Below are positions 12,800 to 56,846 of a stretch of 64,000 nucleotides of DNA, in pieces; the stretch's first letter is position 1, and each line of letters starts with the position of its first letter. Origin of the DNA: Candidatus Levybacteria bacterium RIFCSPHIGHO2_01_FULL_38_26. Lineage in GTDB: Bacteria; Patescibacteriota; Microgenomatia; Levybacterales; UBA12049. The position numbers were made by a program, and so were the translations under genes. Location of the stretch: positions 9,540 through 73,539 of the forward strand of contig MFNO01000022.1 of NCBI GenBank assembly GCA_001782075.1, read 5' to 3'. The notes beneath the pieces are model-generated. The model was not told where the DNA came from, searched no databases, and worked only from the letters and a program-made list of their open reading frames with translations.

Positions 12800-13136
12800 A
12801 AATATAATCTTTGATAAAACTACGCGCTTGGGGTTCTTTGGCACTTTCGGGACAGTATTAATTACTTTTTTATTGATAGTAGTTTATTACAATAAGATGC
12901 CTCCTTTTGTTCCAATTTTTAATCAGCTTCCATGGGGAGAACAAAGGTTGGGGATAAAAACAGAAATATTTATTCCAGTTTCAATCGTTTTTCTAGTTTT
13001 TGTAGTTAATCTGTTGTTGTCTTCAATTATATACAAAAAAATTCCTCTTGCTTCCCGTATCCTGGTAATAAGTAGCTTTACTTTTTCTATTCTCGCTTTC
13101 TTTTTTACGATAAGAACAATTCAGCTAATAATTTAA
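12732..13136 (+). CDS. small membrane protein, 3-4 TM. The true start is probably an internal ATG near 12784, because this ORF overlaps the preceding gene by 68 bp.
   Basis: Hydrophobic profile only. Confidence 0.3.
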   Translation: MSLSSTLRELVLIGYQYMRGFFKNIIFDKTTRLGFFGTFGTVLITFLLIVVYYNKMPPFVPIFNQLPWGEQRLGIKTEIFIPVSIVFLVFVVNLLLSSIIYKKIPLASRILVISSFTFSILAFFFTIRTIQLII

Positions 13137-15122: not shown

Positions 15123-15134
15123 TAAGTATAATCC

Positions 15135-15992
15135 ATGAAGTTAAAATACAAAGATAAGCTAGGGAAGACAATCAAATATTTTAGCGCAAAAGAATCTCGC
15201 TGGGGTTATAGTTTGCTCCTTAGGGGAACAAAGCATTTTGGATATTATCCAGTAGGAAAAGAACATATACCGATGAGCAAGGCTCAAAGATTAATGGAGG
15301 ATAAGTTGGGAAAAAAACTCGATCTTCCTCATAATTCGATGTTGTTAGATGCCGGCAGCGGTGAAGGAAATGTAGCAATATATCTCGCGGAAAAATACGG
15401 TTTTAACATACGCGGAGTAGACTTATTGGGTTTTGCAGTTAAACGCGCAGAGGAAAAATCCAAAAGATTGAATTTGCAAAATAAAGTTGAATTCCACGCT
15501 GGAGATTATACCAAGTTGAATTTTCCAAATAAGACCTTCGATGGCGTTTACACGATGGAGACTTTAGTACATGTCCCTGATTACAAAAAAGCCCTTTCAG
15601 AGTTTTACCGAATATTAAAACCTGGAGGTAGACTAGCTCTTTTTGAGTATTCGATACCTTCGAGGGAAAATCTTTCGCCAGAAGATCAACAGACTTGGAA
15701 TATGATCAACGAAGAATCTGGCATGCATAGTCTGCCATATTTTATTCATGGGAAAATGCCTCAAATACTAAAAAATGCAGGATTCGATAATGTTGTGGTA
15801 GAAAATATTACTCCGCACGTTCTTCCGATGTTAAGAAAATTTTATTTAATTGCGTACGTGCCTTATATTCTTTTTAAAGCATTAGGATTGCAAAGAAAAT
15901 TTATTAATACAACCTCGCCAGTTGAAGTATATAGAAGGTTAAAAGCAACCGATTATTGGAGGTACAATGTTATTACTGCAGTAAAAAGGTAA
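15135..15992 (+). CDS. class I SAM-dependent methyltransferase
   Basis: Motif I LLDAGSGEGNVAIYLAE and post-I acidic loop. Confidence 0.6.
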   Translation: MKLKYKDKLGKTIKYFSAKESRWGYSLLLRGTKHFGYYPVGKEHIPMSKAQRLMEDKLGKKLDLPHNSMLLDAGSGEGNVAIYLAEKYGFNIRGVDLLGFAVKRAEEKSKRLNLQNKVEFHAGDYTKLNFPNKTFDGVYTMETLVHVPDYKKALSEFYRILKPGGRLALFEYSIPSRENLSPEDQQTWNMINEESGMHSLPYFIHGKMPQILKNAGFDNVVVENITPHVLPMLRKFYLIAYVPYILFKALGLQRKFINTTSPVEVYRRLKATDYWRYNVITAVKR

Positions 15993-43375: not shown

Positions 43376-43852
43376 ATGGTTAAACAGGCTAAGAAAATAC
43401 AAGATAAGCAAGAAGTAAAAATTCCAAAAAAGAATTATGTTTTCGCTGTTGGGAGGCGCAAGGAGTCCGTGGCAAGAGTACGTCTTTATAGTACCGACAA
43501 TGTTTCATTGAGTGGAATTATGGTGAATAGGGGTGAGATTATTGTCAACAAGAAAAAAGCGGAGGATTATTTTGGAAAAGGAAGTTCGAATGTTTTTAAA
43601 GAGCCATTGCATATAACAAATACAGAAAATAAATTCGCAGTTACAGTAGTGGTTGTCGGAGGGGGAAAATCTGGCCAGCTCGGCGCAACAGTTTTGGGTA
43701 TTGCAAGAGCATTGGACAAACAAGACAAAGAAAAATTTAGACCATCTCTTAAGAAAAAAGGCTTTCTTACTCGTGATCCAAGAGTTAGAGAGCGCCGCAA
43801 AGTCGGCATGGGCGGAAAAGCGAGGCGAAAAAAGCAATCACCAAAGAGATAG
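43376..43852 (+). CDS. rpsI: ribosomal protein S9
   Basis: C-terminal DPRVRERRKVGMGGKARRKKQSPKR S9 signature. Confidence 0.95.
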   Translation: MVKQAKKIQDKQEVKIPKKNYVFAVGRRKESVARVRLYSTDNVSLSGIMVNRGEIIVNKKKAEDYFGKGSSNVFKEPLHITNTENKFAVTVVVVGGGKSGQLGATVLGIARALDKQDKEKFRPSLKKKGFLTRDPRVRERRKVGMGGKARRKKQSPKR

Positions 43853-44389
43853 GAATTTTTTGTTGTTCTTTAGTTTTTCTACCTCAAGGATGCACCATGG
43901 AGAGTATACATCCGGGTTCTTTTTTACATCTTCAACAAACTTATCCCAAGAAACCCATCTAATATCGTTTGCCTCGTCCTTATTTATCATTGGTTTTTGA
44001 TCTGTGAAGCCAATTAGAATAGGGCATATTTCGTTTTCTATAATTCCGTTTAATTCCACTTTGTATCGAAAATCAGGTATAATCTCAAAGATTTTAGTTT
44101 TAGTAATACCAAGTTCAAAGTTCAATCTTCTTTTTGCCGCATCAATGCTTGATTCATCCAGTGCCGGATGGCCGCAGCAGCTGTTGGACCAGACAAACGG
44201 CCATGTTTTTTTCTTGGCACTTCTCTGCTGAAGGAGAAGTTCGCCCTCTTTGTTGAAAAGAAACAGAGAAAAGCCTCGATGTAATGGTGTATCGTTGTTG
44301 TGGGTTTCGAGTTTTGAAGCAGTTCCCAATATTTTGTTATTTTCATTTACCAAAACAACGTGTTCCATTTTATCTTCTCCAAAAAGCAA
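43838..44389 (-). CDS. idi: isopentenyl-diphosphate delta-isomerase, type 1 (Nudix fold)
   Basis: TPLHRGFSLFLFN...LLLQQRS and WSNSCCGHP motifs of IDI-1. Confidence 0.8.
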   Translation of the reverse strand: MLFGEDKMEHVVLVNENNKILGTASKLETHNNDTPLHRGFSLFLFNKEGELLLQQRSAKKKTWPFVWSNSCCGHPALDESSIDAAKRRLNFELGITKTKIFEIIPDFRYKVELNGIIENEICPILIGFTDQKPMINKDEANDIRWVSWDKFVEDVKKNPDVYSPWCILEVEKLKNNKKFLSLW

Positions 44390-44708
44390 AAATAAAACTT
44401 GCCAAAAGGTACAAAAGAAGTGCTTGCCAAAGTGCTATTGAGATTAGCGCTGTTCCCAAAAACAGCGAAATTAACTCTCTTTTTAATTCATAAACATCTA
44501 TTAAATATGCCCCAATTCTTCCAAGTACGAAAAGTATAGACAGTCCAATAAATGGAGAGAAAACTACCGGTAAAAGAATAGGCCGTCTGGTAACCTGTCT
44601 TACAGTGGCAAGGGGACGAAATGTGAGCCCCAGAAGAGTTTTGATCCAAATATATGTAGCAAAAATTAAAAATGTGCTTTTTTTCATGCCGCTTCGCTGA
44701 TCTTTCAA
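44370..44708 (-). CDS. hypothetical membrane protein (3 TM)
   Basis: Hydrophobic profile only. Confidence 0.3.
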   Translation of the reverse strand: MKDQRSGMKKSTFLIFATYIWIKTLLGLTFRPLATVRQVTRRPILLPVVFSPFIGLSILFVLGRIGAYLIDVYELKRELISLFLGTALISIALWQALLLYLLASFIFAFWRR

Positions 44709-44827
44709 TTTTAAATATTTATTTATATTGAACTTTTCACCTTTCTTCGTTACCTTTTTGGCAAGCTTCGCGGCATGACCCTTCCGTAGTTTTAACGACG
44801 GATCATATCATTCGACTCCGCTCATGA

Positions 44828-45085
44828 TTATAATTTGCCAAAAATTTTTAAAATAAACTCATCGTATCTCTGTCCAATTATACTATGAAATACAAAATTA
44901 ATAATAAATGCAAGCGGGACTAGGATTCGCAGCGGATGGTCGCCAAGCCAAAAACAGACAGTTCTAAAGACTTTTGGCATGGGCATGTTAATGATAATTT
45001 TTCCTTGTTCTCTGGCTCTTGCTTCTAAAGTTTTAATAAATTCATTCTCGTTCATACATTCGACTCTCGACTCTGTTCTATTCAA
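44828..45085 (-). CDS. putative anti-sigma factor (single TM), 4-bp overlap with the ECF sigma gene
   Basis: 85 aa; cytoplasmic N-terminus then one TM helix; gene order sigma then small membrane protein. Confidence 0.35.
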   Translation of the reverse strand: MNRTESRVECMNENEFIKTLEARAREQGKIIINMPMPKVFRTVCFWLGDHPLRILVPLAFIINFVFHSIIGQRYDEFILKIFGKL

Positions 45086-45627
45086 TAATCTGACGAAGAC
45101 TCATAAGCAAGCCGGAAGCGCTGCCTTGCCCTAAAAAGTAGAGATTCAGTAGCCTTAAACGATAGATTAAAAATTATTGACATTTCTTTAACTGATACTT
45201 TTTCTTCGTAGTGAAGCTTTAGTATATTTTGATATTTGCGGGAAATACTGAGAAATGCTGATTCAATCCTGTCTCTTATTTTATTTTTTTCGTATTCAAA
45301 TTCGGGCTGGCTAATTTCGTTCGCAACTATTTGCAGATATGGAATTTGTGACAGAAATATAGATTTGATCTTCTTTTTTCTATAAAAATCAACCATTTTG
45401 TTGTGGGCAATCTTGAAAAGCCAAGCTTGAATATTTTCTTCTTTCTTAAGCAGATACAAAGAATCAATAGCATCCAAAAATACGTCGTTGGTTAGATCTT
45501 GCGCGTCTTCAAATCTTGGTAACTTTTTTGAAAGATAGGACAAGACTTTGGGAGAGTAGAATTTGTAAAATTCAACTACCGCTTTGGTGTCTTTATTGAG
45601 AATACCTTTTATAAAGGAATGGGACAT
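45082..45627 (-). CDS. ECF-type RNA polymerase sigma-70 family factor
   Basis: Region 2 (DLTNDVFLDAID...AWLFKIAHNKMVDFYRKKK) and region 4 (helix-turn-helix ...KVSVKEMSIIFNLSFKATESLLFRARQRF). Confidence 0.75.
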   Translation of the reverse strand: MSHSFIKGILNKDTKAVVEFYKFYSPKVLSYLSKKLPRFEDAQDLTNDVFLDAIDSLYLLKKEENIQAWLFKIAHNKMVDFYRKKKIKSIFLSQIPYLQIVANEISQPEFEYEKNKIRDRIESAFLSISRKYQNILKLHYEEKVSVKEMSIIFNLSFKATESLLFRARQRFRLAYESSSDY

Positions 45628-45703
45628 AGTCAGATTATATCAGATTTCTTCATCGAATGATTATTTTTAATTTTACGACTATATATGGGGTATTAAAATA
45701 CTT

Positions 45704-46849
45704 ATGGATTTGCGTGGTTACCTAAGCGTGTCTGACAGACGAAAGGGAGTAGAAGATAACATAGGAGTTAGCCTGAAAAACATTGGTAATTACTCTATAA
45801 ACGAAGAGATAGCATCTTCTAGAAATTGCGAGAACATGATAGGAGTTACGCAAATTCCCATAGGTATTGCTGGTCCATTAAAAATAAAAAGTGAATTTTT
45901 TAAAGAGGAGTTTTTCTTGCCTCTCGCTACAACCGAAGGGGTTTTGGTTGCCTCTGTAAGCAGGGGATGCAAAGCAATCACTCTAAGCGGAGGAGCTAAT
46001 GTTTTAAGTAAAAAAATAGGTATCACAAGGGCACCTGTTTTTGTTGTTGAGAATATTCTTGAAGGGAAAAAATTTGCAGATTGGGTGCATGCAAATTTTG
46101 ATCAACTGAAAAAAATTGCTGAAGACACATCTTCTCATCTAAAGCTTTTGGAGATAAAAGCTATCTCCATGGGAAGAAACGTTTATTTAAGATTTAGGTT
46201 TGACTCTCACGATGCAATGGGAATGAATATGGCAACAATTGCCGTAACAAAGTCAGCAGAATTTATCGAAAAAAAAGTTCATGTAAAGTGCGTAGCAGTT
46301 TCCGGCAACATGTGCGTTGACAAAAAACCTAATTTTCTGAATTTTATTGAAGGCAGAGGATATATGGTTTCAGCTGAGGCATTGATTCCCAAAAAACTTG
46401 TTAAAACTGTTTTGAAGGCTGAAATTAACGAAATTATAGAGGTTTATCAGCGGAAAATCGTTTACGGATCAGCACTCTCTGGGAGCATAGGGTCAAACGC
46501 TCACTTTGCCAATATTCTGGCGGCAATTTTTGCAGCTACTGGACAGGATTTGGCACATGTGGCAGAATGTTCTATAGGTACAACAACTATTGAGACAGTC
46601 AAAGATAGCCTCTATGCTTCGGTATATTTGCCAGATTTGGCAGTTGGAACAGTTGGCGGAGGAACAGGACTTGAGACTCAAAAAGAAGCATTGTCGATTA
46701 TGGGAGTTGCAGGTGGCGATAATGGTAAGAATGCTAGAAAATTTGCAGAGATTATCGGAGGTGCAGTTTTGGCAGGAGAAATTTCTCTTCTTGCTTCATT
46801 GGCAGAAGGTTCATTGGCATCGGTTCACAAAAGATTAGGCAGGGGATAA
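45704..46849 (+). CDS. hmgA: HMG-CoA reductase (catalytic domain)
   Basis: DAMGMN and VGTVGGGT motifs conserved in HMG-CoA reductases; 381 aa. Confidence 0.8.
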   Translation: MDLRGYLSVSDRRKGVEDNIGVSLKNIGNYSINEEIASSRNCENMIGVTQIPIGIAGPLKIKSEFFKEEFFLPLATTEGVLVASVSRGCKAITLSGGANVLSKKIGITRAPVFVVENILEGKKFADWVHANFDQLKKIAEDTSSHLKLLEIKAISMGRNVYLRFRFDSHDAMGMNMATIAVTKSAEFIEKKVHVKCVAVSGNMCVDKKPNFLNFIEGRGYMVSAEALIPKKLVKTVLKAEINEIIEVYQRKIVYGSALSGSIGSNAHFANILAAIFAATGQDLAHVAECSIGTTTIETVKDSLYASVYLPDLAVGTVGGGTGLETQKEALSIMGVAGGDNGKNARKFAEIIGGAVLAGEISLLASLAEGSLASVHKRLGRG

Positions 46850-46862
46850 GTTTTAAATAAAA

Positions 46863-47900
46863 ATGAGTGGTATTGTTTCTTACGGTACATATATTCCTAA
46901 ATATCGTCTTAGGCTCTCAAGTATCGCCCAAATGTGGGGGAAAGACTCCGACGAGATAGAAGCGGGACTTCGTATGGTTGAAAAGGCAGTTTCCGGCTTT
47001 GACGAAGATGCAGTGACAATGGGTATTGAGGCAGGTAAAAAGGCAATTGAGTTGGCAGAGATTAAATCTGGTGAGCTTGAGAGTGTATATTTTGGTTCAG
47101 AAAGCCATCCTTATGCTGTTAAACCCTCTTCAACATCAGTTGCGCAGTATCTTGGTGTTGGAAACAATTATTTTGCGGCTGATTTGGAATTTGCCTGCAA
47201 AGCCGCAACTGCTGGAATGCAGGTGTCATCTGCTTTATTAAATAGCAAAGTCATAAAATATGGATTAGTAATAGGAAGTGATGCGGCACAAGGAAAACCC
47301 CATGATGCCTTAGAATATACAGCTGCAAGCGCGGCTTGTGCCTATATTTTAGGAAATAATAAAAACGAGATCATTGCAGAAATTCTTGAAATGTCATCAT
47401 TTTCCTCAGATACTCCGGATTTTTGGAGAAGAGACGGAGCAAGATATCCTTCCCACTTCGGAAGATTTACCGGAGAGCCTGCGTATTTTACCCATGTAAT
47501 GGGAGCGGCTAAAAATTTGTTTGCCAAAAGCAAGCTTAAGCCCTCTGATTTTGATTTTTGTGTATTTCATATGCCAAATGGTAAATTTCCACGAGTTGTT
47601 GGGAAAAAACTAGGTTTTACCAGCGAGCAACTAGCACCTTCTTTAATAGTAGATAAGATTGGCAATCCATATTCTGCGTCTTCTTTGATGGGATTGGCAT
47701 GTGTTTTGGATGTAGCAAAACCAAAGCAGAAAATATTTTTTGTTTCATATGGATCGGGAGCAGGATCAGATGGGTTTATATTTGAGACGACAGAGAAGCT
47801 CTTAAAAAGGCAAAAAAAGATAATTCCGGTACTAGAGCAGATAGAAGATAAGATTTATATTTCTTATCCAGAATATCTAAAGCACACACACGCAATATGA
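46863..47900 (+). CDS. HMG-CoA synthase, short archaeal-type
   Basis: 345-aa thiolase-fold condensing enzyme with an active-site Cys region (ADLEFACKAATAG); precedes the thiolase and DUF35 genes as in archaeal MVA operons. Confidence 0.75.
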   Translation: MSGIVSYGTYIPKYRLRLSSIAQMWGKDSDEIEAGLRMVEKAVSGFDEDAVTMGIEAGKKAIELAEIKSGELESVYFGSESHPYAVKPSSTSVAQYLGVGNNYFAADLEFACKAATAGMQVSSALLNSKVIKYGLVIGSDAAQGKPHDALEYTAASAACAYILGNNKNEIIAEILEMSSFSSDTPDFWRRDGARYPSHFGRFTGEPAYFTHVMGAAKNLFAKSKLKPSDFDFCVFHMPNGKFPRVVGKKLGFTSEQLAPSLIVDKIGNPYSASSLMGLACVLDVAKPKQKIFFVSYGSGAGSDGFIFETTEKLLKRQKKIIPVLEQIEDKIYISYPEYLKHTHAI

Positions 47901-49045
47901 AGATAAGTATATTAGGTACTGCAACAACCAAATTTGGAGAATTGTGGAACATTTCTCCTCGCGCGTTGGCAAAAGAAGCAATGATTAGTGCCCTAGATGC
48001 TTCGGGGTTAAAAGCTCATCAAATAGATGCATTGTTTGTGGGGAATATGCTATCTGGAATATTGGGAAATCAGGCAAATTTAGGATCACTTTTAGTTGAA
48101 GAATTGGGTGTTAACATCCCGGCATTTAGGATAGAGGGCGCATGTGCATCCGGAGGATTGGCTCTTCACAATGCGGTAAACAGTCTTAAAGCTTACCAAT
48201 ACAGGACAGCTTTAGTTTTAGGGATAGAAAAAATGACAGATCATAGTCAGGATGAGATTACAAATGCTCTTATGGCGGCGGGATCAGATGAAGAAAGATT
48301 GGCAGGCGCAACATTCCCGGGTGTATATGCTCTAATGGCACAGGCTTATATGCAAAAGTATAAAGTTACAGAAGAGGATTTAGCCGCAGTTTCTGTAAAA
48401 AATCATTATCATGGGACCCTTAATTCAAAGGCACAGTTCCAGTTTGAAGTATCAATTTCAGATGTTATGAAGAGTTCAAAGATTGCGGATCCACTTAAGC
48501 TTTTGGATTGCTCCCCTATTTCAGACGGGGCGGCAGCTGTTGTTATTACAAGCGATGAAAATTCTAAAAAAATTAAAAACAATGTTTATATCGCTGCAAG
48601 TGAAGTAGCAACAGATACTCTTAGCCTTCATGACAGAAAATCTTTCACAAGCCTTGAATCAGTAGTTAAGGCATCTAACAATGCGTACAAGAAAACAGGG
48701 ATAAAACCAAAAGACATTGACGTTTCTGAAATTCATGATTGTTTTTCAATTTCCGAGGCAATTGCAACAGAAGACTTGGGGTTTTCAGAAAAAGGAGAAG
48801 GCGCAATAGATATTGCCAAAGGAAAAAGAACTCTTTTTAAGGGAGATATTATTTGTAATCCCTCTGGTGGGCTTAAGGCTTGCGGTCATCCGGTTGGGGC
48901 AACCGGTATAAAACAAATAGTAGAGATAACAGAGCAATTACGCGGGGAGGCTGGAAAACGTCAGGTTGAAAAAGCGAAGATTGGCTTGACTCACAATGTT
49001 GGAGGGAGTGGAACAGTTGCCGCAATTCATATCTTGAGGAGTTGA
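47897..49045 (+). CDS. acetoacetyl-CoA thiolase, archaeal-type
   Basis: Catalytic Cys motif IEGACASGG and C-terminal GHPVGATG and NVGGSG thiolase motifs. Confidence 0.8.
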   Translation: MKISILGTATTKFGELWNISPRALAKEAMISALDASGLKAHQIDALFVGNMLSGILGNQANLGSLLVEELGVNIPAFRIEGACASGGLALHNAVNSLKAYQYRTALVLGIEKMTDHSQDEITNALMAAGSDEERLAGATFPGVYALMAQAYMQKYKVTEEDLAAVSVKNHYHGTLNSKAQFQFEVSISDVMKSSKIADPLKLLDCSPISDGAAAVVITSDENSKKIKNNVYIAASEVATDTLSLHDRKSFTSLESVVKASNNAYKKTGIKPKDIDVSEIHDCFSISEAIATEDLGFSEKGEGAIDIAKGKRTLFKGDIICNPSGGLKACGHPVGATGIKQIVEITEQLRGEAGKRQVEKAKIGLTHNVGGSGTVAAIHILRS

Positions 49046-49353
49046 TATTTATGATAACATCGCCTGTAAAACTTTGGAGAAGACAAAAAAGCGCATCATC
49101 TCTTATTGGGAAAAAGGGTAAGATTTTGCACTGGACAATTATTCGAGTTCCAGCAAAATCTTTTGTTGATCAGGCTCCGTATCCTGTGGTAATTGTGAAA
49201 GTGCAAAATGGAGAAAATATGATTGGACAACTAGTTGATTGGCAAAAAGAGGATTTAAAAGTTGGGCAGGATGTAGTATGTGTTTTGAGACGACTGCGCA
49301 CCGAAGAGAGAGAAAGCATAATCTACTACAATATTAAATTTAAACCTCTATGA
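49042..49353 (+). CDS. DUF35-family OB-fold protein (scaffold of the archaeal thiolase/HMGCS complex), without an N-terminal Zn ribbon
   Basis: PYPVVIVKVQNGENMIGQLVDW...LKVGQDVVCVL matches the DUF35 OB-fold consensus (PY.VALVEL.EG.R....IVD......IGM.V). Confidence 0.55.
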   Translation: MIFMITSPVKLWRRQKSASSLIGKKGKILHWTIIRVPAKSFVDQAPYPVVIVKVQNGENMIGQLVDWQKEDLKVGQDVVCVLRRLRTEERESIIYYNIKFKPL

Positions 49354-50417
49354 AACTTATTAAAGTTTCTGCCCCGGGGAAACTTCATTTACTTGGTGAA
49401 CACGCAGTTGTTTATGGTAAACCTGCAATTATTGCTGCAATTGGCAAAAGATGTTTTGTCTATATAAAAAACCGTAGCGATAAAAAAATAAACATCTCAT
49501 CAGAAAGTTTTGGGAAAAGTAATAATTTTACAGAGAAAGAGATTATTGATAAAACAAAAAAAGCGCAGTTAAATTGGGAAAAGTATATAGAAAACAATGA
49601 CATTCTGCTTCTTAAGTCAATAACTTCAGATCCTCTTGATTTTCCGGCAATAATTATTGGAGAAAGTTTGAGGTATTTTAAAAAGAAGATTTCTTCTGGC
49701 TTTGACCTTAAAATAAAATCAGATATTCCGATTGGATCAGGCATGGGATCATCTGCAGCATTAAGCGTTGCTATTGCAGGAGGAATTTCCATATTTCTTG
49801 GTGAAGGCTTAAATAAAAACGTTATAAACGAAATTGCATTTAAATCTGAACAGAAAAAGCATGGTTTTCCATCTGGCGGTGATAACTCAGCAAGTTGTTT
49901 TGGTGGAATGATTTGGTATAGAAAAGAGTCCCCGGACTTAAAAATTATTCAGAAAATACCATTTGAATTTCCAGCAAAGTTATCACGAAACTTCTACGCG
50001 ATTCATACAGGCATACCTAGCGAATCGACAGGAGAAATGGTTAGTATTGTAAGAAATTTACATTCGAAAAGAAAAAATTTTGTGGATGGTATTTTATCTA
50101 ATCAAGAAAGATTGGTGGTGGAACTTTTATCTGCAGTCAAAAGAGAAGATGAGTTAGAAATTATAAATATTATTAAGAATGGCGAGAGAAATTTGGAGAA
50201 ACTTGGGGTGGTTTCTGATTCGGCAAAGTTGTTAATAAGATCAATTGAAAAAAATGGAGAAGCTGCGAAAATTTGTGGAGCAGGAGGAAAGAAAAAAGGA
50301 GCAGGAATAGTCTTGGTTTATAGTAAGCATACGGAGTTCGTAAAAAGCTTAGCAAAATTTCATAATTACAAATGCATAAATATTTATATGGGCGAGGAGG
50401 GTTTTAGAAAGGAATGA
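49350..50417 (+). CDS. mvk: mevalonate kinase (GHMP family)
   Basis: SAPGKLHLLGEHAVVYG N-terminal motif; GHMP ATP motif PIGSGMGSSAA. Confidence 0.75.
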   Translation: MKLIKVSAPGKLHLLGEHAVVYGKPAIIAAIGKRCFVYIKNRSDKKINISSESFGKSNNFTEKEIIDKTKKAQLNWEKYIENNDILLLKSITSDPLDFPAIIIGESLRYFKKKISSGFDLKIKSDIPIGSGMGSSAALSVAIAGGISIFLGEGLNKNVINEIAFKSEQKKHGFPSGGDNSASCFGGMIWYRKESPDLKIIQKIPFEFPAKLSRNFYAIHTGIPSESTGEMVSIVRNLHSKRKNFVDGILSNQERLVVELLSAVKREDELEIINIIKNGERNLEKLGVVSDSAKLLIRSIEKNGEAAKICGAGGKKKGAGIVLVYSKHTEFVKSLAKFHNYKCINIYMGEEGFRKE

Positions 50418-51382
50418 ATAAGAAAATGGTTTCTGCACCTGGAAAATTGATGCTCATGGGTGAACACGCAGTTGTCTATGATCATCCTTGTCTTGTGACT
50501 GCGGTTGATCAGAGAATGTGGGTTACCATTGAATTGATGGATAATCAAGAGTTTTGGCTTGAGGCAAAGGACGTCGGGATAAAAGAACACAAAAAAACAT
50601 TAAAAGATTTGGGGAAAGGTGGAATTCCAAAAGGAGCAAAATTTGTAGAATTAGCGGTTAAAAATATCATTGAAAAGTATTCCTTGAAATCGGGTTTTAA
50701 AGTGGTTACAAAATCAGAATTCTCAAGCGAGTTTGGATTTGGATCCTCTTCTGCGTCAACAGTTTGTACAATAAAAGCAATATCGGAGATTTTTAAATTA
50801 AATTTATCGCATAAAGAAATATTTGATATTTCTTATAAAACAGTTCTGGATATTCAGGGAAAAGGATCGGGATTTGATGTTGCCGCGTCAGTATATGGTG
50901 GAACATTATATTTCTTGACCGGAGGAAGAGCGATTAAACCATTTGGTATTAAATCCTTGCCTTTAGTTGTAGGATATAGCGGGGTAAAAGCAGATACGGC
51001 TCAGCTTATAAATAAAGTAAAAGAAGATTATTTCACTAAAAAAGATCGTCTTGATGAGATTTATAATAAGATTGAAGTTTTAGTTAATCAGGGAAAAGAT
51101 GCGCTTGTTAAAAGGGATTGGAAAGCGCTTGGCAAATTAATGAATAAAAATCAGGAATATTTAGTTGAACTTGGTGTTAGCAGTGGTATGCTTGATAAGA
51201 TGATTGAGGCTGTATTACAAGCCGAGGCATATGGCGCGAAACTTTCAGGAGCTGGCGGCGGAGATTGTATGATCGCGATTGTTTCGGAGGGCAAGAAAGA
51301 AGCTGTCAAAAGAGCCATTTTAAGCACTGGGGGAACAATAGTTAATGTTGAAACAGATGCGGAAGGAGTTAAAGTAGAATAA
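50414..51382 (+). CDS. second GHMP kinase, probable phosphomevalonate kinase
   Basis: SAPGKLMLMGEHAVVY and GFGSSSAST motifs; sits between mvk and the decarboxylase. Confidence 0.55.
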   Translation: MNKKMVSAPGKLMLMGEHAVVYDHPCLVTAVDQRMWVTIELMDNQEFWLEAKDVGIKEHKKTLKDLGKGGIPKGAKFVELAVKNIIEKYSLKSGFKVVTKSEFSSEFGFGSSSASTVCTIKAISEIFKLNLSHKEIFDISYKTVLDIQGKGSGFDVAASVYGGTLYFLTGGRAIKPFGIKSLPLVVGYSGVKADTAQLINKVKEDYFTKKDRLDEIYNKIEVLVNQGKDALVKRDWKALGKLMNKNQEYLVELGVSSGMLDKMIEAVLQAEAYGAKLSGAGGGDCMIAIVSEGKKEAVKRAILSTGGTIVNVETDAEGVKVE

Positions 51383-51385
51383 ACA

Positions 51386-52363
51386 ATGAAAGCGACAGCA
51401 GTTGCGCCGTCAAATATTGCTTTTATTAAATACTGGGGCAAAAAAGATGAGGGATTAAGAATTCCTTTGAATGGAAGTATTTCTATGAATTTAAGCAATC
51501 TTTTGACTACGACAACCGTCGAGTTTAACCCAAAATTTAAAAAAGATGCAGTCACAATTGATGATCAAAAAGAAGACGAAGCAAAAAACAGGGTAATTAA
51601 ACATTTGGATAGAGTAAGGAAAATTGCAAAAATAAATGATAGGGCAAAAGTTGTTTCGGTCAATAATTTCTCGACAAGCACTGGTCTTTCATCATCAGCG
51701 TCCGGTTTTGCTGCTTTGACCCTTGGCGCCTCATGTGCAGCAGGGTTAAATTTGTCAGAAAAAGAATTATCGATTCTTGCAAGAGTTGGTTCAGGATCTG
51801 CGTGTCGTTCTATTCCTGATGGTTTTGTTGAGTGGTTTCCTGGAGAAACAAACGAAACCTCTTATTCTGTATCATTTTTTCCTCAAGATTACTGGGATAT
51901 TGTTGATGTTGTTGCGATAATTAGTAAAGATAAAAAAGAAGTTCCAACAACAGCGGGTCAAAAATATACAAAAACTAGCCCCTTTCTCCCAACTCGTTTA
52001 GAACGAATAGAAGAGAAAATAAAATTAGTTAAAAAATATATTCAAGAAAAAAACTTTTCTCTTTTTGGAGAATTGATTGAGCAGGAAGCATTAGAGCTTC
52101 ATTCTATTATGCTGACGTCAAAACCACCGCTTATCTATTGGTTGCCAGAAACTTTGAAAGTAATGCATGCTGTTATAAAGTGGAGGCAAGAGGGGTTGCA
52201 AGTTTATTTTACTATTAATACAGGCCAAAACATTCACCTTATCTGTCGAGAGAAAGATTTGAAAAAAGTTATGGTCAGAATAAAAGAGTTATCAGTAGTA
52301 ATAAAAACAATTATTAACAATCCAAGCAGAGGCGCAGACTTGACAACATCTCATTTATTTTAA
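51386..52363 (+). CDS. mvaD: diphosphomevalonate decarboxylase family
   Basis: NIAFIKYWGKKDE and STGLSSSASGFAAL motifs. Confidence 0.8.
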   Translation: MKATAVAPSNIAFIKYWGKKDEGLRIPLNGSISMNLSNLLTTTTVEFNPKFKKDAVTIDDQKEDEAKNRVIKHLDRVRKIAKINDRAKVVSVNNFSTSTGLSSSASGFAALTLGASCAAGLNLSEKELSILARVGSGSACRSIPDGFVEWFPGETNETSYSVSFFPQDYWDIVDVVAIISKDKKEVPTTAGQKYTKTSPFLPTRLERIEEKIKLVKKYIQEKNFSLFGELIEQEALELHSIMLTSKPPLIYWLPETLKVMHAVIKWRQEGLQVYFTINTGQNIHLICREKDLKKVMVRIKELSVVIKTIINNPSRGADLTTSHLF

Positions 52364-52367
52364 AATT

Positions 52368-53087
52368 TTATTTTCCAAACCTTCTTTGTCTGTTTGAGTA
52401 TTCTTGGACAGCGAAATCGATATCGTCTTCGTTTAGATCCGGAAAGTGTTTGTCAAAAAAAACATACTCTGCATAAGCTGCCTGCCAGATCATAAGCCCC
52501 GATGTTCTTTGTTCCCCGCTTGTTCTTATAATCAGATCTGGATTCGGATGCGGTTGGTCATGCGTGTCTAGAAATTGATTAAAATTCTTCTCATCTAAGT
52601 TTTGAACTTTGAACTCTTGCTCTGAGCGACGTCGAAGAGTTGAACTTTGAACTTTCTTGATTGCTCGGATTACTTCATCGCGTCCTCCATAGTCAAGAGC
52701 GACATTTAAAATATATTTTTTGAAATCTTTTGTTTTTTCTTCACTTTCTGTAATTTTTTTAAGCAAACTTTTAGGAAGCCTGTCTTTTCTTCCAAGGTGA
52801 ACCACTCGTATTTCTTCTTTTATGGACTCCTTTAGATTTTTTTCTATGAATATTTCATATAGTTTCATAAGATACCGAACTTCTTCTAGAGCTCTTTTCC
52901 AGTTTTCGGTCGAGAATGCCCAAAGGGTGAAGGTGTTTATTCCCAAAGTCCTTACTTTTCGTCCGATCTTTATCGCAGTGTCAAACCCAATCCTATGTCC
53001 CTCAAAGGTAGGTTTGTTACGAGATTTTGCCCATCTCCTGTTGCCATCTGGAATTATAGCCAAATGATTTGGAATGGTAAGTTGCAT
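52368..53087 (-). CDS. uppS: undecaprenyl-diphosphate synthase (cis-prenyltransferase)
   Basis: HLAIIPDGNRRWA and the C-terminal RFG motif. Confidence 0.9.
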   Translation of the reverse strand: MQLTIPNHLAIIPDGNRRWAKSRNKPTFEGHRIGFDTAIKIGRKVRTLGINTFTLWAFSTENWKRALEEVRYLMKLYEIFIEKNLKESIKEEIRVVHLGRKDRLPKSLLKKITESEEKTKDFKKYILNVALDYGGRDEVIRAIKKVQSSTLRRRSEQEFKVQNLDEKNFNQFLDTHDQPHPNPDLIIRTSGEQRTSGLMIWQAAYAEYVFFDKHFPDLNEDDIDFAVQEYSNRQRRFGK

Positions 53088-54592: not shown

Positions 54593-55381
54593 TTATTTCC
54601 TATCGGGATTTCTGTCGGGTTTTAAAAGATAAGATGAGATAGTATCATCGACTCCAGCATGCTGTATCCCTTCTATTTTAAAATGTCTGAATCCAGTAAG
54701 TTCATCAATACTTATTCCTTGATAAAAAACTTCTCTGTTTTCCTCGGAAGTCCTGCATATAATTCTTGAGTCAGAACCGGTATGTTGCCAAATATTATCC
54801 ATAATATTCTGTTTTGGCTTTGCAAGAAGAGCAACAAAAATTACTTTGTTACCATGTGTAGAGCCCTTTTGTCCGGTTGAGTTAACTACGCTTATTTTTT
54901 CACTCATGCCCAATTTTTCGATTACTTCTCTTGATCTGCTAACTACCTCGTCATTTTGTTCATAGCACTCAACGTTCGCGCCGGTCATTCTAGAAATAAG
55001 GATAGGAGATATTGTGAATGGGCCACTTCCTATAAACAAAACTCTGTCATCTTCTTTTACTTTTGCGAGTTCGGTTTCTTTGGCAATCAGCCGCTTAAAT
55101 CTATCGTACAGAGGGTATTCTTCTTCAGAATTTGTCTCACCTGATAGTAATTTTTGAGCAAATTCATTCTCCAAATTTGTTTCAAATTGTTCATAAAGAG
55201 CCTGTAATCTTTTTAAAGTATTTCTGTTTGCTAGATCGGAAACATCAGGATCTTTTAAATTGTCACTTTGCAAAAACATCTCATCCAGTCGAAAGCAGGC
55301 ATTTCTCACAGCTGAAGGGTCTTCAAGATTGGTACTTGCCAGTTGGCTGATTTCGGGTATAAGCTTTGGTATTTCGGTCAT
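54593..55381 (-). CDS. nicotianamine-synthase-like protein (short archaeal-type NAS fold; SAM-derived aminoalkyl transferase)
   Basis: ...YPLYDRFKRLIAKETELAKV...RVLFIGSGPFTISPILISR...ANVECYEQNDEVVSRSREVI follows the NAS pattern (FPYY.NY..L...E..LL....kVAFVGSGPLPLTSIVLA....T.F.NFDID..AN..A), and the size (about 260 aa) matches archaeal NAS homologues. Confidence 0.5.
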   Translation of the reverse strand: MTEIPKLIPEISQLASTNLEDPSAVRNACFRLDEMFLQSDNLKDPDVSDLANRNTLKRLQALYEQFETNLENEFAQKLLSGETNSEEEYPLYDRFKRLIAKETELAKVKEDDRVLFIGSGPFTISPILISRMTGANVECYEQNDEVVSRSREVIEKLGMSEKISVVNSTGQKGSTHGNKVIFVALLAKPKQNIMDNIWQHTGSDSRIICRTSEENREVFYQGISIDELTGFRHFKIEGIQHAGVDDTISSYLLKPDRNPDRK

Positions 55382-55394
55382 TGTGAAAACAAAA

Positions 55395-55763
55395 TTATAT
55401 TTCCTGGTGGACCAGGTCTTTGGATTTGAAAAAATCTTTCGTGAACATCACTACTTTTTTTACGTCAAACTTCTTACAGCTGTAAATATCGGACGTAAAA
55501 AATTTGACTTTTCTCCAGGCATATACATGGCAGCCGGATTCTGTCCATGCGACAAAACCATTCAGCTCGTAGAGTGGCACATCTTGGTTATCCCATTTGT
55601 CTGGAGGCCAAGAGTAGGGACCAGAGAATATTCTCATCTTCAGGACTTTGGAAAGTTCTTTGAGATAATATTTTATTGTCTTACCATCGGCATTGATCCC
55701 ATAATGACCCTCAATGATAAGTCTTTGTCTGATAACACTCGGCTCTAAATTCTTCACACCCAA
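55395..55763 (-). CDS. S-adenosylmethionine decarboxylase-like pyruvoyl-dependent proenzyme (SpeH/SpeD class 1b-like)
   Basis: 122 aa; LIIEGHYGIN N-terminal strand; the putative Glu-Ser self-cleavage site in FVAWTESGCHVYAWRK aligns with the AdoMetDC LSESHISIHTWPE; SDIYSCK aligns with DVFTCG. Confidence 0.5.
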   Translation of the reverse strand: MGVKNLEPSVIRQRLIIEGHYGINADGKTIKYYLKELSKVLKMRIFSGPYSWPPDKWDNQDVPLYELNGFVAWTESGCHVYAWRKVKFFTSDIYSCKKFDVKKVVMFTKDFFKSKDLVHQEI

Positions 55764-55832: not shown

Positions 55833-56846
55833 ATGGCTACTGTAGGAAGATCAAAAAGTGGAATTAATTACCTTGCTGAGTTGTTAAGAGAAGCACCTAA
55901 AACTCTTACAAAGGTTTGTTTCTGGAAAATACCACATAATACTGGAAAAGAAGATATTAGATTAAAAATAGGAAGATATAATAAAGACGGTTTTGAAACT
56001 TTGGAAACTAGACAACCTAAAAGCGAATTAACACTTGATCACGAGGAGTTTCAAAACTTGCTTAAATTTTTATCAGAAAATTATGAACCTTTCAAGAAGG
56101 GTGTTATGAAATACATTCCAATTGATGAAAAATTTGATGAAAAGAGCATAGATCACCTGAGGGCAATTTTTGCAAATCCTGATAAGCAAAAAGTTTTAGA
56201 TTTCGTAGCAGAGAATAATATTCTTCCTGTGGATCTAATTGCTTCTCTACAACATCAAATGCGAATAAATGCGGTTCGAGAATTTGAAGGTATGTTAAAT
56301 AAAAATTTACTCGAGCAAAAGTGGCAAGAATGGTTTGAAAGAAACGATTGGGTATTGGGCAGCGAGTTTGTAAAAATTCTCGATGAAAGGGAAATAGATA
56401 CATCAAACATCACGGACTATTTAATGCAAGCATACGATGGATTTTTAGATATTATTGAAATAAAAAGACCAGAAGGAGATTTACAATTTTGGGCTGAAGG
56501 ACAAGATCACGGAAATTATGTGCCTTCAAACGACTTAACGAAAGCCATAACTCAAGCTACGAAATATATTTATGAAGTCGAACGAGAAGCGAATAGTATT
56601 AAGTTTTTGGAAAGGGTTGGAAATGTAAAAACCATTAAGCCACGCTGCATTTTAATTTTCGGAAGATCCAATGATTGGAATAATGAAAAAAGAGAGTCGT
56701 ATCGAATATTGAACTCAAGTTATCATAGCCTGACTATTATGACTTACGATCATGTATTAAGTAGGGCTAAAAGGATTTTGGGATTTAGTGGTAAGGAGGA
56801 AGCTGTTATGAAAGAAGATGTTCAACCAAAAGATGTATCCTTTTAG
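55833..56846 (+). CDS. Shedu-like antiphage defence nuclease (DUF4263, PD-(D/E)xK)
   Basis: C-terminal domain with AYDGFLDIIEIKRPE (D...ExK core), ILIFGRS and the terminal LTIMTYDHVL block typical of DUF4263/SduA; variable N-terminal domain. Confidence 0.6.
   Translation: MATVGRSKSGINYLAELLREAPKTLTKVCFWKIPHNTGKEDIRLKIGRYNKDGFETLETRQPKSELTLDHEEFQNLLKFLSENYEPFKKGVMKYIPIDEKFDEKSIDHLRAIFANPDKQKVLDFVAENNILPVDLIASLQHQMRINAVREFEGMLNKNLLEQKWQEWFERNDWVLGSEFVKILDEREIDTSNITDYLMQAYDGFLDIIEIKRPEGDLQFWAEGQDHGNYVPSNDLTKAITQATKYIYEVEREANSIKFLERVGNVKTIKPRCILIFGRSNDWNNEKRESYRILNSSYHSLTIMTYDHVLSRAKRILGFSGKEEAVMKEDVQPKDVSF

Follow-up and report, generated by a model that had tools for sequence, protein, structure and literature searches.

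How does a CPR bacterium come to carry a compact block of mevalonate genes next to an ECF-type sigma factor and a cis-prenyl synthase, which gene product takes which step, and is the block an archaeal import? We addressed these questions for a locus at positions 43838-53087 of a 64-kb window (the whole stretch of DNA analysed, 64,000 nucleotides) from a Candidatus Levybacteria bacterium (CPR, Microgenomates) from Rifle groundwater, with 80 genomes of relatives and 15 loci from metagenomes for comparison. The CPR mevalonate pathway itself is already published: the available text of Hoshino & Gaucher 2018 (PMC6107057) describes a gene set with an archaeal thiolase, class I HMG-CoA reductase (HMGR-I) and IDI-I, in a cluster that, as here, is syntenic with a cis-prenyl diphosphate synthase, occasionally includes IPK and is found mainly in Microgenomates. 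In that text, DUF35 has 0 occurrences, and the sigma module, the distinction between the two kinases (K1 and K2) and a decarboxylase class with Asn for Asp do not feature. Three details added here from the relatives, namely the loss of the DUF35 zinc ribbon, the conserved sigma module and the K1/K2 assignment, appear to be previously undescribed; the Asn variant of the decarboxylase is noted as well.

Gene content of the locus

The features are as follows, with profile scores and model cutoffs in brackets.

43838..44389, minus strand: idi, type 1 isopentenyl-diphosphate isomerase, Nudix fold (NF002995 215.6, cutoff 127; TIGR02150 154.4, cutoff 105.8); the likely start gives 176 aa and a gene end at 44368
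44370..44708, minus strand: short membrane protein, 105-112 aa
44828..45085, minus strand: small single-pass membrane protein, 75-85 aa, candidate anti-sigma factor; the stop overlaps the sigma gene
45082..45627, minus strand: ECF-type sigma-70 family factor (PF04542, PF08281; TIGR02937 76.9 bits, cutoff 42.9)
45634..45642, minus strand: TGATATAAT, putative extended -10 of sigma-70 type (consensus match only), lying 6 nt ahead of the start codon of the sigma gene
45655..45679, plus strand: bipartite motif GAATGATT-N10-TTACGAC, 25-50 nt upstream of the HMG-CoA reductase gene
45704..46849, plus strand: HMG-CoA reductase (HMGR), class I, NADPH type (PF00368 395 bits)
46863..47900, plus strand: archaeal-type HMG-CoA synthase, 345 aa (NF003274 484, cutoff 244; TIGR00748 420, cutoff 353)
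47897..49045, plus strand: archaeal-type acetoacetyl-CoA thiolase, 382 aa (NF004720 475.6 bits, cutoff 420)
49051..49353, plus strand: DUF35 protein, putative scaffold, 100 aa, N-terminal helix and OB fold (PF01796 41.7 bits, cutoff 27.1)
49350..50417, plus strand: GHMP kinase 1, 355 aa, assigned mevalonate 5-kinase (TIGR00549 180.4 bits, cutoff 163)
50414..51382, plus strand: GHMP kinase 2, 322 aa, mevalonate-kinase-like, assigned phosphomevalonate kinase (TIGR00549 202 bits)
51386..52363, plus strand: mevalonate-family decarboxylase, assigned diphosphomevalonate decarboxylase (TIGR01240 268.8 bits, cutoff 171)
52368..53087, minus strand: uppS, undecaprenyl-diphosphate (cis-prenyl) synthase (PF01255 239; TIGR00055 231, cutoff 109.6)

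All of the genes are intact. Profile models and translations agree with the gene identities and coordinates given in a preliminary description of this DNA, whose CPR origin also holds, and every motif it listed (DAMGMN, VGTVGGGT, GACASGG, GHPVGATG and NIAFIKYWGKKDE) is found in the translations. Between neighbours among the seven plus-strand genes there is either a 4-nt overlap or a gap of 3-13 nt; across related loci the junctions range from -4 to +12 nt, and the order HMGR-HMGS-THL-DUF35-K1-K2-MDD is kept in 56 of the 59 loci with enough sequence. That the locus is a working mevalonate-to-undecaprenyl unit is, in our view, highly probable. The broader explanation, in which it would supply the Levybacteria cell with isoprenoid precursors and lipid carrier through a classical lower pathway and under sigma control, we consider likely as a whole.

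The condensing trio and its origin

In the upper pathway, acetyl-CoA would be converted to HMG-CoA by the archaeal-type thiolase and HMG-CoA synthase pair, and mevalonate would then be made by the class I reductase, which scores 436.5 bits against TIGR00533 (slightly below the 441.8 cutoff) and 58.2 against the class II model TIGR00532. The proposal that thiolase, synthase and DUF35 protein form an archaeal-type trio is supported by profile scores and by matches to the subunits of the archaeal complex 6ESQ (synthase to chain I, 365 bits; thiolase to chain A, 308 bits; DUF35 to 6ESQ_E, its best PDB sequence match, 41.6 bits). In common with that complex, the three genes are adjacent and neither enzyme has lost a catalytic motif: the synthase keeps the Glu-Cys-His-Asn tetrad (SESH, FACKA, FHMPNG, GNPYS; motif definition in PMC12960953), and the thiolase keeps CxS (GACASG), HDxF (IHDCF) and GHx (CGHPVG).

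Could the trio instead have been recruited to another reaction, as a PhlABC/MucABC-like or FabH-like acyltransferase or condensing enzyme, with no part in the first two mevalonate steps? The Friedel-Crafts acyltransferases PhlABC and MucABC have the same three-subunit architecture (HMGS-like, thiolase-like, DUF35), relatives of PhlA and MucA are the next-best PDB matches of the synthase (186-196 bits), its Pfam matches are ACP_syn_III domains, and the DUF35 model superposes well on PhlB and MucC too. However, PhlABC and MucABC have lost the tetrad and HDxF (PMC12960953) and carry a zinc ribbon, whereas in the window proteins the pattern is reversed. The synthase lies far above the cutoffs of its equivalog models and reaches only 72-77 bits against FabH models with cutoffs of 249-292, the condensing enzymes fall outside the FabH families, and the trio genes are translationally coupled to those for the reductase and the lower pathway. 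A repurposed function is therefore hardly conceivable.

The DUF35 protein had been described as lacking its zinc ribbon, and indeed it contains no cysteine pair whatever; aligned with zinc-bearing forms it shows one 32-column gap, exactly over the Cys4 ribbon. Its AlphaFold model (pLDDT 92.5) fits best onto the DUF35 subunits of 6ESQ, MucABC and PhlABC, with 6ESQ_F/G/E as the top Foldseek hits (TM 0.73, rmsd 1.9 A), so that the OB fold and N-terminal helix are shared with the 6ESQ complex while the ribbon is absent. Two CxxC motifs occur in 0 of the 80 DUF35 orthologues in Microgenomates genomes. Searches returned 394 matches at E <= 1e-3 (representatives of 50%-identity clusters), and among the best 150 of these most are ~100 aa long and without a Cys pair; such ribbon-less proteins define a large family. 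Trp9, Arg10 and Arg80 are invariant across 80 representatives at 30-75% identity, and the gene overlaps both of its neighbours at its start and stop. The ribbon-less protein presumably serves as a complex scaffold, holding thiolase and HMG-CoA synthase together. Every structurally characterised DUF35 protein binds zinc, which speaks against scaffolding by an OB fold alone, and the cleft between ribbon and OB fold contacts the thiolase (PMC6996347).

The preliminary description also suggested that the operon was horizontally acquired. A recent transfer from archaea would fit the similarity of synthase, thiolase and DUF35 protein to the subunits of the Methanothermococcus complex, at the 6ESQ scores given above, and the class I type of the reductase. 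Against it, the GC content of the operon (0.36-0.39) equals that of the rest of the window, including the surrounding ribosomal and housekeeping genes, and the mevalonate block is present, with lineage-specific rearrangements, throughout Levy-, Roizman- and Gottesmanbacteria. A neighbour-joining tree of the decarboxylases groups by lineage, and the zinc-less DUF35 protein is a derived feature common to the group. In the available part of the published analysis, CPR mevalonate enzymes fall into their own clades, and their presence in the CPR ancestor was inferred (PMC6107057). Horizontal acquisition is thus unsupported, and a recent archaeal source is highly improbable.

Two kinases and a decarboxylase

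The lower pathway would follow the classical order, kinase 1 taking the mevalonate kinase step, kinase 2 the phosphomevalonate kinase step, and the decarboxylase acting on diphosphomevalonate. But what distinguishes the two kinases? Both keep every mevalonate-kinase catalytic residue (in kinase 1 Lys, GEH, GSS, Glu and the Asp of SGGDNS). The best PDB matches of kinase 1 are rat and human mevalonate kinase, and that of kinase 2 is an archaeal mevalonate kinase (125 bits). Kinase 2 passes neither phosphomevalonate kinase model (TIGR01220 111.7, cutoff 165.7; NF040957 79.6, cutoff 500).

No model gives the assignment; it comes from the way the genes are distributed. Nine operons were seen to be of the IPK type, one in L042 and eight in metagenome loci (L093-L099 and L101). 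Their layout is ...DUF35-K1-decarboxylase-IPK, without K2, and the sole kinase that they retain reaches 142-171 bits when compared with K1 and 47-62 with K2. A Gln/His-type decarboxylase together with IPK marks exactly the operons that lack K2. In one locus, L102, IPK stands beside both kinases and a Lys-type decarboxylase, and therefore the presence of IPK alone does not exclude K2. In Gottesmanbacteria, K2 is fused to IDI. Since IPK lineages keep K1 and lose K2, the role of mevalonate kinase probably belongs to kinase 1 and that of phosphomevalonate kinase to kinase 2. The idea that the second kinase might be a mevalonate-3-kinase homologue did not hold up, as the protein is mevalonate-kinase-like and comparative genomics points to a phosphomevalonate kinase; both kinases and the decarboxylase fall outside the galacto- and homoserine-kinase families.

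For the decarboxylase, the earlier name, diphosphomevalonate decarboxylase (DMD), stands in part. It agrees with the TIGR01240 match and with a DMD-like Lys at specificity site 1 (YWGK), whereas the closest solved homologue is the Anaerolinea phosphomevalonate decarboxylase (PMD) 6N0X (~300 bits, 45.9% identity, versus 206 bits and 39.6% for S. aureus DMD) and the catalytic Asp is replaced by Asn (loop TINTGQN versus canonical TxDAGPN). The protein is a 'class B' variant, with Asn for the canonical Asp, and is predicted to be active; unlike most class B relatives, it lacks an Asp at +4. Four assemblies carry this gene in identical form. Among K2-linked decarboxylases, 58 of 62 have Lys or Arg at site 1, while L031, L014 and L054 carry K2 and yet have a non-basic residue there. 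The IPK-linked enzymes form their own clade with YWGQ and GH, like the Anaerolinea PMD (YWGN and GH), and it is at exactly the site-1 and GH residues that an engineered, DMD-like Anaerolinea PMD differs (PMC9254496).

These patterns bear on another route, that of Chloroflexi and haloarchaea (MVK, PMD, IPK), in which one or both kinases would yield mevalonate 5-phosphate for a PMD, IPK would be encoded elsewhere and kinase 2 would be a second mevalonate kinase, either redundant or under different regulation. The closeness of the decarboxylase to 6N0X speaks for it, as do the two kinases, each accepted by the mevalonate kinase model but by no phosphomevalonate kinase model. IPK is also common in Microgenomates, in our analysis and in the available text of PMC6107057, and the K1-decarboxylase-IPK layout is really found in a sister group of Microgenomates operons. 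The window differs from it in its second kinase and in the Lys at the diphosphate-specificity site, as in DMDs and the engineered PMD; the IPK-adjacent enzymes form the separate Gln and His clade, in operons without kinase 2, and no IPK was found within the 64-kb window, while users of the route carry it inside the operon. We regard this route as distinctly unlikely here. The classical order preferred above comprises the same three reactions as the mvaK1-mvaD-mvaK2 operon of Gram-positive cocci, likewise with three GHMP-fold genes in one operon. The differences are that kinase 2 is not of the TIGR01220 type, that the order is K1-K2-D, that the upper pathway is archaeal-type instead of MvaS with thiolase II, and that the reductase is class I.

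The sigma module and the lipid-carrier genes

The sigma gene lies directly upstream of the reductase gene, divergent and 76 bp away, and the divergent unit to which it belongs ends with idi. The best subfamily model of the sigma factor is SigM, at 80.9 bits below its cutoff of 148. The small single-pass protein has no Pfam match and no recognisable anti-sigma domain; it resembles a 77-aa protein that follows sigma in L015 (BLASTP E 2e-4), and a small membrane protein follows sigma in 40 related loci (median gap -4 nt). We only infer that it acts as an anti-sigma factor. The short membrane protein next to it matches the N-terminal half of another L015 protein (BLASTP E 2e-4). Judged by position and weak similarity, it appears to be the counterpart of a ~205-aa Yip1-domain protein whose gene, in other Microgenomates, comes after those for sigma and the small membrane protein; the L075 orthologue matches PF04893 (Yip1, 37.3 bits), and a Yip1-like membrane protein is present in 58 related loci.

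A functional link between this module and the operon, as suggested earlier, is supported by adjacency: in 56 of 57 loci, with at least four flanking contexts, HMGR has a sigma orthologue no more than 2 kb away. In 56/57 loci the sigma factor, the small single-pass protein and the Yip1-like protein adjoin the operon, usually as its first genes, and in relatives the genes of the series sigma, small protein, Yip1 protein, HMGR overlap or nearly touch. The three would form one conserved unit, for which control of the operon seems the most likely role; whether the ECF sigma factor itself exerts this control we consider evenly balanced. The -10 upstream of sigma recurs as TG(A/G)TATAAT in L010, L013 and L014. 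The motif upstream of HMGR is shared by six Levy-type loci (the window and L010-L014), with identical boxes and a variable spacer sequence, and has one exact copy in the 64 kb. It can be read as GAAT-N17-CGAC, which is ECF-promoter-like, but an operator or a weak promoter for sigma-70 is an alternative reading. Upstream of sigma in other lineages, GAAT-N17-CGAC occurs in 6 of 57 loci against 2.3 expected by chance, which we count as not found.

The module might also be a non-regulating neighbour, kept there by chance or a shared membrane function, with the DUF35 protein likewise a dispensable remnant. Such a reading would account for the lack of a detectable anti-sigma domain and of a promoter motif common across lineages, and for the inverted Levybacteria arrangement, in which sigma has its own sigma-70-like -10. 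It is nevertheless rather unlikely given the conserved adjacency across flanking contexts and the overlapping genes and, for DUF35, the invariant residues, the confident fold and the overlap with both neighbours. A regulatory module of this kind is reminiscent of SigM-YhdL-YhdK of Bacillus subtilis, which responds to undecaprenyl-phosphate availability (PMC11081497): in both, an ECF sigma factor and two small membrane partners are tied to lipid-carrier supply. We treat the resemblance as a lead, as the sigma factor stays below the SigM cutoff and its partners, one Yip1-like and the other a single-pass protein of 75 aa, are unrelated to YhdL and YhdK.

At the end of the proposed pathway, IDI-1 would balance IPP and DMAPP, and UppS would build the C55 carrier. 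A trans-prenyl (FPP) synthase to prime UppS is absent from the 64-kb window. Although convergent with the operon in the window, uppS runs in the operon's direction in most relatives; in 34 relatives, the median distance between MDD and uppS is 2.5 nt. The link drawn in the preliminary description between the operon and the glycosylation cluster at 9.8-16 kb is plausible, because this cluster holds a PMT_2 protein, a MraY/WecA-like transferase and a UbiA protein.

Gene content and origin of the mevalonate operon

Twelve genes lie within 43838-53087 of the window, a stretch that the preliminary description had read as a complete mevalonate operon with an archaeal-type trio of thiolase, HMG-CoA synthase (HMGCS) and DUF35. 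This annotation turned out to be largely right: Pfam and NCBIfam scans back every assignment, and all motifs quoted for it were found in the window translations.

Genes of the locus (window positions, strand, identity)
43838-44389, minus: idi, type 1 (Pfam/NCBIfam)
44370-44708, minus: 112-aa membrane protein
44828-45085, minus: 85-aa single-pass membrane protein
45082-45627, minus: ECF sigma factor (PF04542, PF08281)
45704-46849, plus: HMG-CoA reductase (HMGR), class I; begins 76 bp from the sigma gene
46863-47900, plus: HMG-CoA synthase (archaeal equivalog models)
47897-49045, plus: thiolase (NF004720)
49051-49353, plus: DUF35 (PF01796)
49350-50417, plus: GHMP kinase 1 (TIGR00549)
50414-51382, plus: GHMP kinase 2 (TIGR00549)
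51386-52363, plus: decarboxylase (TIGR01240)
52368-53087, minus: uppS, convergent with the operon end (passes TIGR00055)

Moving away from the operon, the minus-strand genes thus follow in the order sigma, 85-aa protein, 112-aa protein and idi. Both equivalog models for archaeal HMG-CoA synthase accept the synthase (484 and 420 bits), and the thiolase scores above the cutoff of NF004720 with 476 bits. Membership of the condensing enzymes in the FabH/KAS III families, or of the kinases and the decarboxylase among the galactokinases or homoserine kinases, would have called for a different pathway; since TIGR00747 (76.8 bits, cutoff 292), NF006829 (72.2 bits, cutoff 249) and the galactokinase and homoserine kinase models all score far under their cutoffs, the mevalonate assignment stands. 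No isopentenyl phosphate kinase (IPK) was found in the 64-kb window and no trans-prenyl (FPP/GGPP) diphosphate synthase anywhere in positions 1-64000; in many related loci, a trans-prenyl diphosphate synthase directly follows uppS (e.g. 13867-14835 of the related locus L015).

The core finding, that Microgenomates make isoprenoids through mevalonate and begin the route with enzymes of archaeal type, is already published. In PMC6107057, CPR mevalonate genes are described as typically clustering with a gene for a cis-prenyl diphosphate synthase, with an IPK sometimes present, and the CPR enzymes as forming their own clades, from which the pathway was inferred for the CPR ancestor; a Peregrinibacteria genome paper comes to the same conclusion for that phylum. 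The horizontal acquisition proposed earlier is therefore not supported, given these separate clades (PMC6107057) and a GC content of 0.36-0.39 across the operon that equals that of the rest of the window. The remaining window is housekeeping DNA, with a ribosomal protein operon, chaperones, recA and a lipid-linked glycosylation cluster. Metagenome contigs from the Rifle aquifer encode the same proteins, and the DUF35 is identical to one from 'Candidatus Levybacteria bacterium RIFCSPHIGHO2_01_FULL'. What is variant here is the zinc-free DUF35, the sigma module in the operon, a probable phosphomevalonate kinase (PMK) missed by the family models and a class of decarboxylase without the canonical Asp.

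A DUF35 without zinc ribbon in the upper pathway

The genes for HMGCS, thiolase and DUF35 are adjacent, either overlapping or 5 nt apart (46863-47900, 47897-49045, 49051-49353). Synthase and thiolase can each be aligned from end to end with a subunit of the Methanothermococcus thiolase/HMGCS/DUF35 complex 6ESQ (365 and 308 bits, respectively). The Glu-Cys-His-Asn tetrad of HMGCS is kept (SESH, FACKA, FHMPNG and GNPYS aligned with 6ESQ_I; motif list from PMC12960953), as are the CxS, HDxF and GHx motifs of the thiolase (GACASG, IHDCF and CGHPVG aligned with 6ESQ_A). The repurposed acyltransferases PhlABC and MucABC lost exactly those tetrad and thiolase-motif residues (PMC12960953), whereas the window enzymes retain them.

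The DUF35 protein (PF01796, 41.7 bits) has the DUF35 chain of the 6ESQ complex as its closest solved relative. [quoted passage not shown] In the same alignment, the window protein still has the 'SPVKxWR' segment at its N terminus as well as the OB fold. An AlphaFold model from a diverse alignment reached a pLDDT of 92.5; a model from a shallow alignment (sequences of at least 73% identity) reached 49.7 and was discarded. In Foldseek, the best superpositions of the retained model were with the 6ESQ DUF35 chains F/G/E (TM 0.73, rmsd 1.9 A), MucABC and PhlABC. According to PMC6996347, all DUF35 proteins with a solved structure bind zinc, and it is through the cleft between ribbon and OB fold that the thiolase is contacted, which makes the window DUF35 a real variant of the scaffold. 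Thiolase, HMGCS and DUF35 would presumably still form a heteromeric complex here. No description of a zinc-less DUF35 was found in the searchable literature.

How widespread is this form? Using a pattern from a 17-sequence DUF35 alignment, we scanned a single genome for each GTDB species and obtained 165 relatives. Among the best 80 of these, whose loci we annotated using the window proteins as queries, none has a zinc ribbon, making the OB-only, zinc-free DUF35 a minimal natural scaffold that can be used to probe the role of the ribbon in the channelling complex. All of these 80 loci come from CPR of the Microgenomates type, with Levy-, Roizman- and Gottesmanbacteria alongside numerous MAGs under wrong labels. 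When 1.84 billion cluster representatives were searched, 394 DUF35 relatives came up, of which the best 150 are mostly of ~100 aa, without cysteine pairs and 30-59% identical; 130-aa zinc-ribbon forms come only lower among the matches listed. For 20 cluster representatives, hardly any organism names were on record: the short forms yielded a single Patescibacteria and one zinc-bearing cluster yielded Thermococcus, and the taxonomy of the DUF35 relatives was taken from the genome scan. About 30 of the loci, in addition to L014, L018, L020, L022 and L023, come from TPA MAGs titled 'uncultured Gammaproteobacteria bacterium' that carry this CPR-specific operon; the title is evidently a placeholder or a wrong taxonomy. 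Two loci, L071 (4659-11173) and L077 (2315-5948), have the upper pathway and DUF35 with no GHMP kinase or decarboxylase after them; in L071, uppS directly follows DUF35, and L077 is filed as 'Candidatus Methanoperedens', probably a binning error.

Two kinases, a decarboxylase and the alternative with IPK

Both GHMP kinases pass the mevalonate kinase model TIGR00549 (cutoff 163), kinase 1 with 180.4 and kinase 2 with 202.2 bits, and both keep the catalytic Lys, Glu-His, Ser, Glu and Asp residues when aligned to the rat and M. mazei enzymes, as do 75 orthologues of kinase 1 and 65 of kinase 2. The nearest relative of kinase 1 is rat/human mevalonate kinase, that of kinase 2 archaeal mevalonate kinase. 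No PMK model is passed by either: kinase 2 stays under the cutoffs of TIGR01220 (111.7, cutoff 165.7), NF040957 (79.6, cutoff 500) and TIGR01219 (20.1, cutoff 377), and kinase 1 scores 73.7 and 48.2. Sequence models by themselves thus cannot assign the two roles. The idea that the second kinase might be a homologue of mevalonate-3-kinase (M3K) was rejected, as were identities as M3K and bisphosphomevalonate decarboxylase (MBD) of the Thermoplasma route for kinase and decarboxylase: the models NF040848 and NF040847 give 36.7 bits (cutoff 440) and 64.5 bits (cutoff 560).

The distribution of the kinases is more telling. In the related locus L042 (1555-4247), the operon consists of thiolase, DUF35, kinase 1, decarboxylase and a 267-aa protein recognised by the equivalog model for IPK (199.9 bits, cutoff 120), and kinase 2 is missing. 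A metagenome scan with this IPK found eight more such loci without kinase 2 (L093-L099 and L101; e.g. L093 6069-8804), three of which include the upstream HMGR-HMGS-thiolase genes, L101 among them also having the sigma and Yip1 genes. In all eight, the sole kinase matches kinase 1 (152-171 bits) better than kinase 2 (48-62 bits). A route via phosphomevalonate decarboxylase (PMD) and IPK requires mevalonate kinase and no PMK. As the IPK-type operons keep only kinase 1, kinase 1 is probably the mevalonate kinase and kinase 2 the PMK, an assignment that for kinase 2 is drawn entirely from its distribution across lineages. Annotation pipelines label both as 'mevalonate kinase' and report no PMK, so that metabolic reconstructions of CPR genomes will show as missing a step that is probably present. 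The nine IPK-type loci themselves present an alternative mevalonate route within the same conserved operon, in a sister group of operons from Microgenomates.

The decarboxylase passes the diphosphomevalonate decarboxylase (DMD) model TIGR01240 (268.8 bits, cutoff 171.35) and stays below the PMD model NF040704 (186.8 bits, cutoff 475). Among solved structures, it is nearest to the Anaerolinea PMD 6N0X-6N0Z (~300 bits, 45.9% identity; identity of the entry from PMC9254496), with a classical DMD at 206 bits and 39.6%. A basic residue after YWG distinguishes DMD from PMD. Wild-type 6N0X and engineered 6N0Z differ at two sites in their aligned part: the engineered entry has Lys for Asn at this first site and Met for His at the second. 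We compared both sites across the relatives.

Residues at the two specificity sites of the decarboxylases (site 1, after YWG; site 2)
Window enzyme: Lys (YWGK); Gln
62 genome-scan relatives (61 linked to kinase 2, plus L042): Lys/Arg in 58; Gln in 27, Met in 20, His in 15
IPK-linked relatives: Gln; His
Anaerolinea PMD: Asn; His

Site 1 is Gln in 7/7 IPK-linked decarboxylases that include the motif (the ORF call of L090 begins past YWG). In a neighbour-joining tree, the IPK-linked enzymes group as a clade of their own, and they resemble the Anaerolinea enzyme at both sites. The co-variation of the two sites with IPK supports diphosphomevalonate as the predicted substrate of the window enzyme. 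The exchange of kinase 2 for IPK in sister lineages, together with the matching decarboxylase residues, makes the route switch directly testable. The decarboxylase of L014, a Levy-related genome, has Thr/His at the two sites; the same locus carries a 2-kb insertion between kinase 1 and kinase 2 (11364-13386).

PMC9254496 describes the loop TxDAGPN as having an Asp that no DMD, PMD or MBD enzyme lacks. The window loop reads TINTGQN (residues 274-283), with Asn at the position of the catalytic Asp. An assembly error is ruled out, as four independent assemblies carry the identical gene, and the N-T-G-Q variant recurs in 30 of 70 aligned sequences (68 CPR sequences and two PDB references). Of these 30, 26 have an Asp at +4, which the window enzyme lacks. 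In the Sulfolobus enzyme SsoDMD, D281N was reported to be still active, while substitution by Thr or Val gives a kinase (PMC9254496); by analogy, activity of the window enzyme with Asn in place of Asp is plausible.

Further variations concern the same genes. Genomes of the Gottesmanbacteria type encode kinase 2 as a fusion with an IDI-1/Nudix domain at the C terminus, 470-520 aa in length.

Kinase 2-IDI fusions
L050, 12088-13566
L058, 11395-12813
L075, 11237-12661
L083, 11153-12724

The locus L102 (5770-14091) combines IPK with both kinases, the lower pathway and sigma-Yip1, two unrelated genes replacing the upper pathway, and of L103 (9001-9804) and L104 (8171-9798), one has only IPK and the other IPK and a remnant of kinase 1. 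These three loci indicate that IPK has roles beyond a simple alternation with kinase 2. They look like successive stages of operon decay in genomes of the Roizmanbacteria type, with flanks that L103 and L104 have in common and L102 partly shares (DUF4340, T4SS pilins, Fic, DNA ligase), and may reflect salvage of mevalonate or isopentenyl phosphate from a host.

Conservation of the array and its sigma module

Across the annotated loci, kinase 1, kinase 2 and decarboxylase follow in that order in 56/59 with sufficient downstream sequence, and a sigma gene lies within 2 kb of HMGR in 56/57 with sufficient upstream sequence. Outside Levybacteria, the array is co-directional: sigma, a 77-aa single-pass protein, a ~205-aa protein with a Yip1 domain (PF04893) and then HMGR.

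Median gaps between genes of the array
Sigma to small protein: -4 nt
Small protein to Yip1 protein: -11 nt
Yip1 protein to HMGR: +10 nt
Decarboxylase to uppS: +2.5 nt

Because the flanks of the array differ among at least four genome groups, the linkage is specific to the array and does not reflect general synteny. In L075 (2764-3144), L045 (13068-13499) and many Gottesman/Roizman loci, small T4SS-pilin-like genes (PF18895) lie in tandem beside the operon; one group of loci has such arrays between decarboxylase and uppS.

The ECF sigma factor consists of regions 2 and 4 only (PF04542, PF08281; TIGR02937 76.9 bits, cutoff 42.9). Downstream, its gene overlaps that of a conserved single-pass protein of 75-85 aa with no Pfam match, a candidate anti-sigma factor. 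The two small proteins of the window correspond by position, and weakly by sequence, to the 77-aa and Yip1-like proteins. Levybacteria have the sigma module inverted relative to the operon, and the divergent region carries two candidate elements.

Candidate elements in the divergent region (within 45634-45679)
76-bp divergent region, 6 nt before the sigma start: putative TGATATAAT element
Upstream of and facing HMGR: bipartite motif CGAATGATT-N10-TTACGAC

The TGATATAAT element is also kept in other Levy-type loci; its position would imply a near-leaderless sigma mRNA. The boxes of the bipartite motif are identical, with a variable spacer, in all six Levy-type loci (the window and L010-L014), and the motif could be read as GAAT-N17-CGAC, a resemblance to an ECF promoter that falls short of proof. 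Searching the 64 kb for a regulon with the HMGR-upstream motif gave three matches with at most three mismatches, against 2.4 expected by chance; a match before the Yip1-like gene (44789-44813) was dropped, as it sits in a gap absent from the other Levy-type loci. Upstream of sigma in the co-directional lineages, GAA[TC]-N15-18-CG[AT]C occurs in 6/57 loci against 2.3 expected (shuffle maximum 9), with no shared motif, and a generic scan for sigma-70 promoters and terminators over 43.3-54 kb did not exceed the shuffled expectation. The conserved linkage and the motif facing HMGR suggest that the operon may be transcribed in a sigma-dependent manner.

A sigma module inside an operon supplying the lipid carrier is a rare regulatory handle, and such organisms cannot yet be grown alone. 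As a lead, the closest functional analogy is the SigM pathway of B. subtilis, which responds to undecaprenyl phosphate (PMC11081497). Taken together, these features could be read as a streamlined archaeal machine in Microgenomates, with a ribbon-less scaffold, an Asp-less decarboxylase and an operon under a membrane-sensing module of ECF sigma factor, small protein and Yip1-like protein; we consider this joint reading tentative and, as a whole, rather doubtful. If true, a sigma module sensing the status of lipid carrier or membrane would constitute a circuit for lipid-carrier homeostasis, analogous to Bacillus SigM although built from unrelated parts, and the swap between kinase 2 with a Lys-type decarboxylase and IPK with a Gln/His-type one, within one class, would be a living record of how the routes interconvert.

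Elsewhere in the window, a co-directional cluster on the plus strand (9858-15992) encodes a 497-aa protein without Pfam match, a PMT_2 (GT-C) glycosyltransferase, a MraY/WecA-like Glycos_transf_4 protein, a UbiA-family prenyltransferase and a SAM methyltransferase, which likely consume the polyprenyl phosphate made by the operon. Beyond uppS, a nicotianamine-synthase-like gene (PF03059) lies beside a weak S-adenosylmethionine decarboxylase-like gene (54593-55763, minus), an unusual pair for CPR, and a 337-aa protein with an SduA_C (Shedu defence nuclease) domain is encoded at 55833-56846 on the plus strand.
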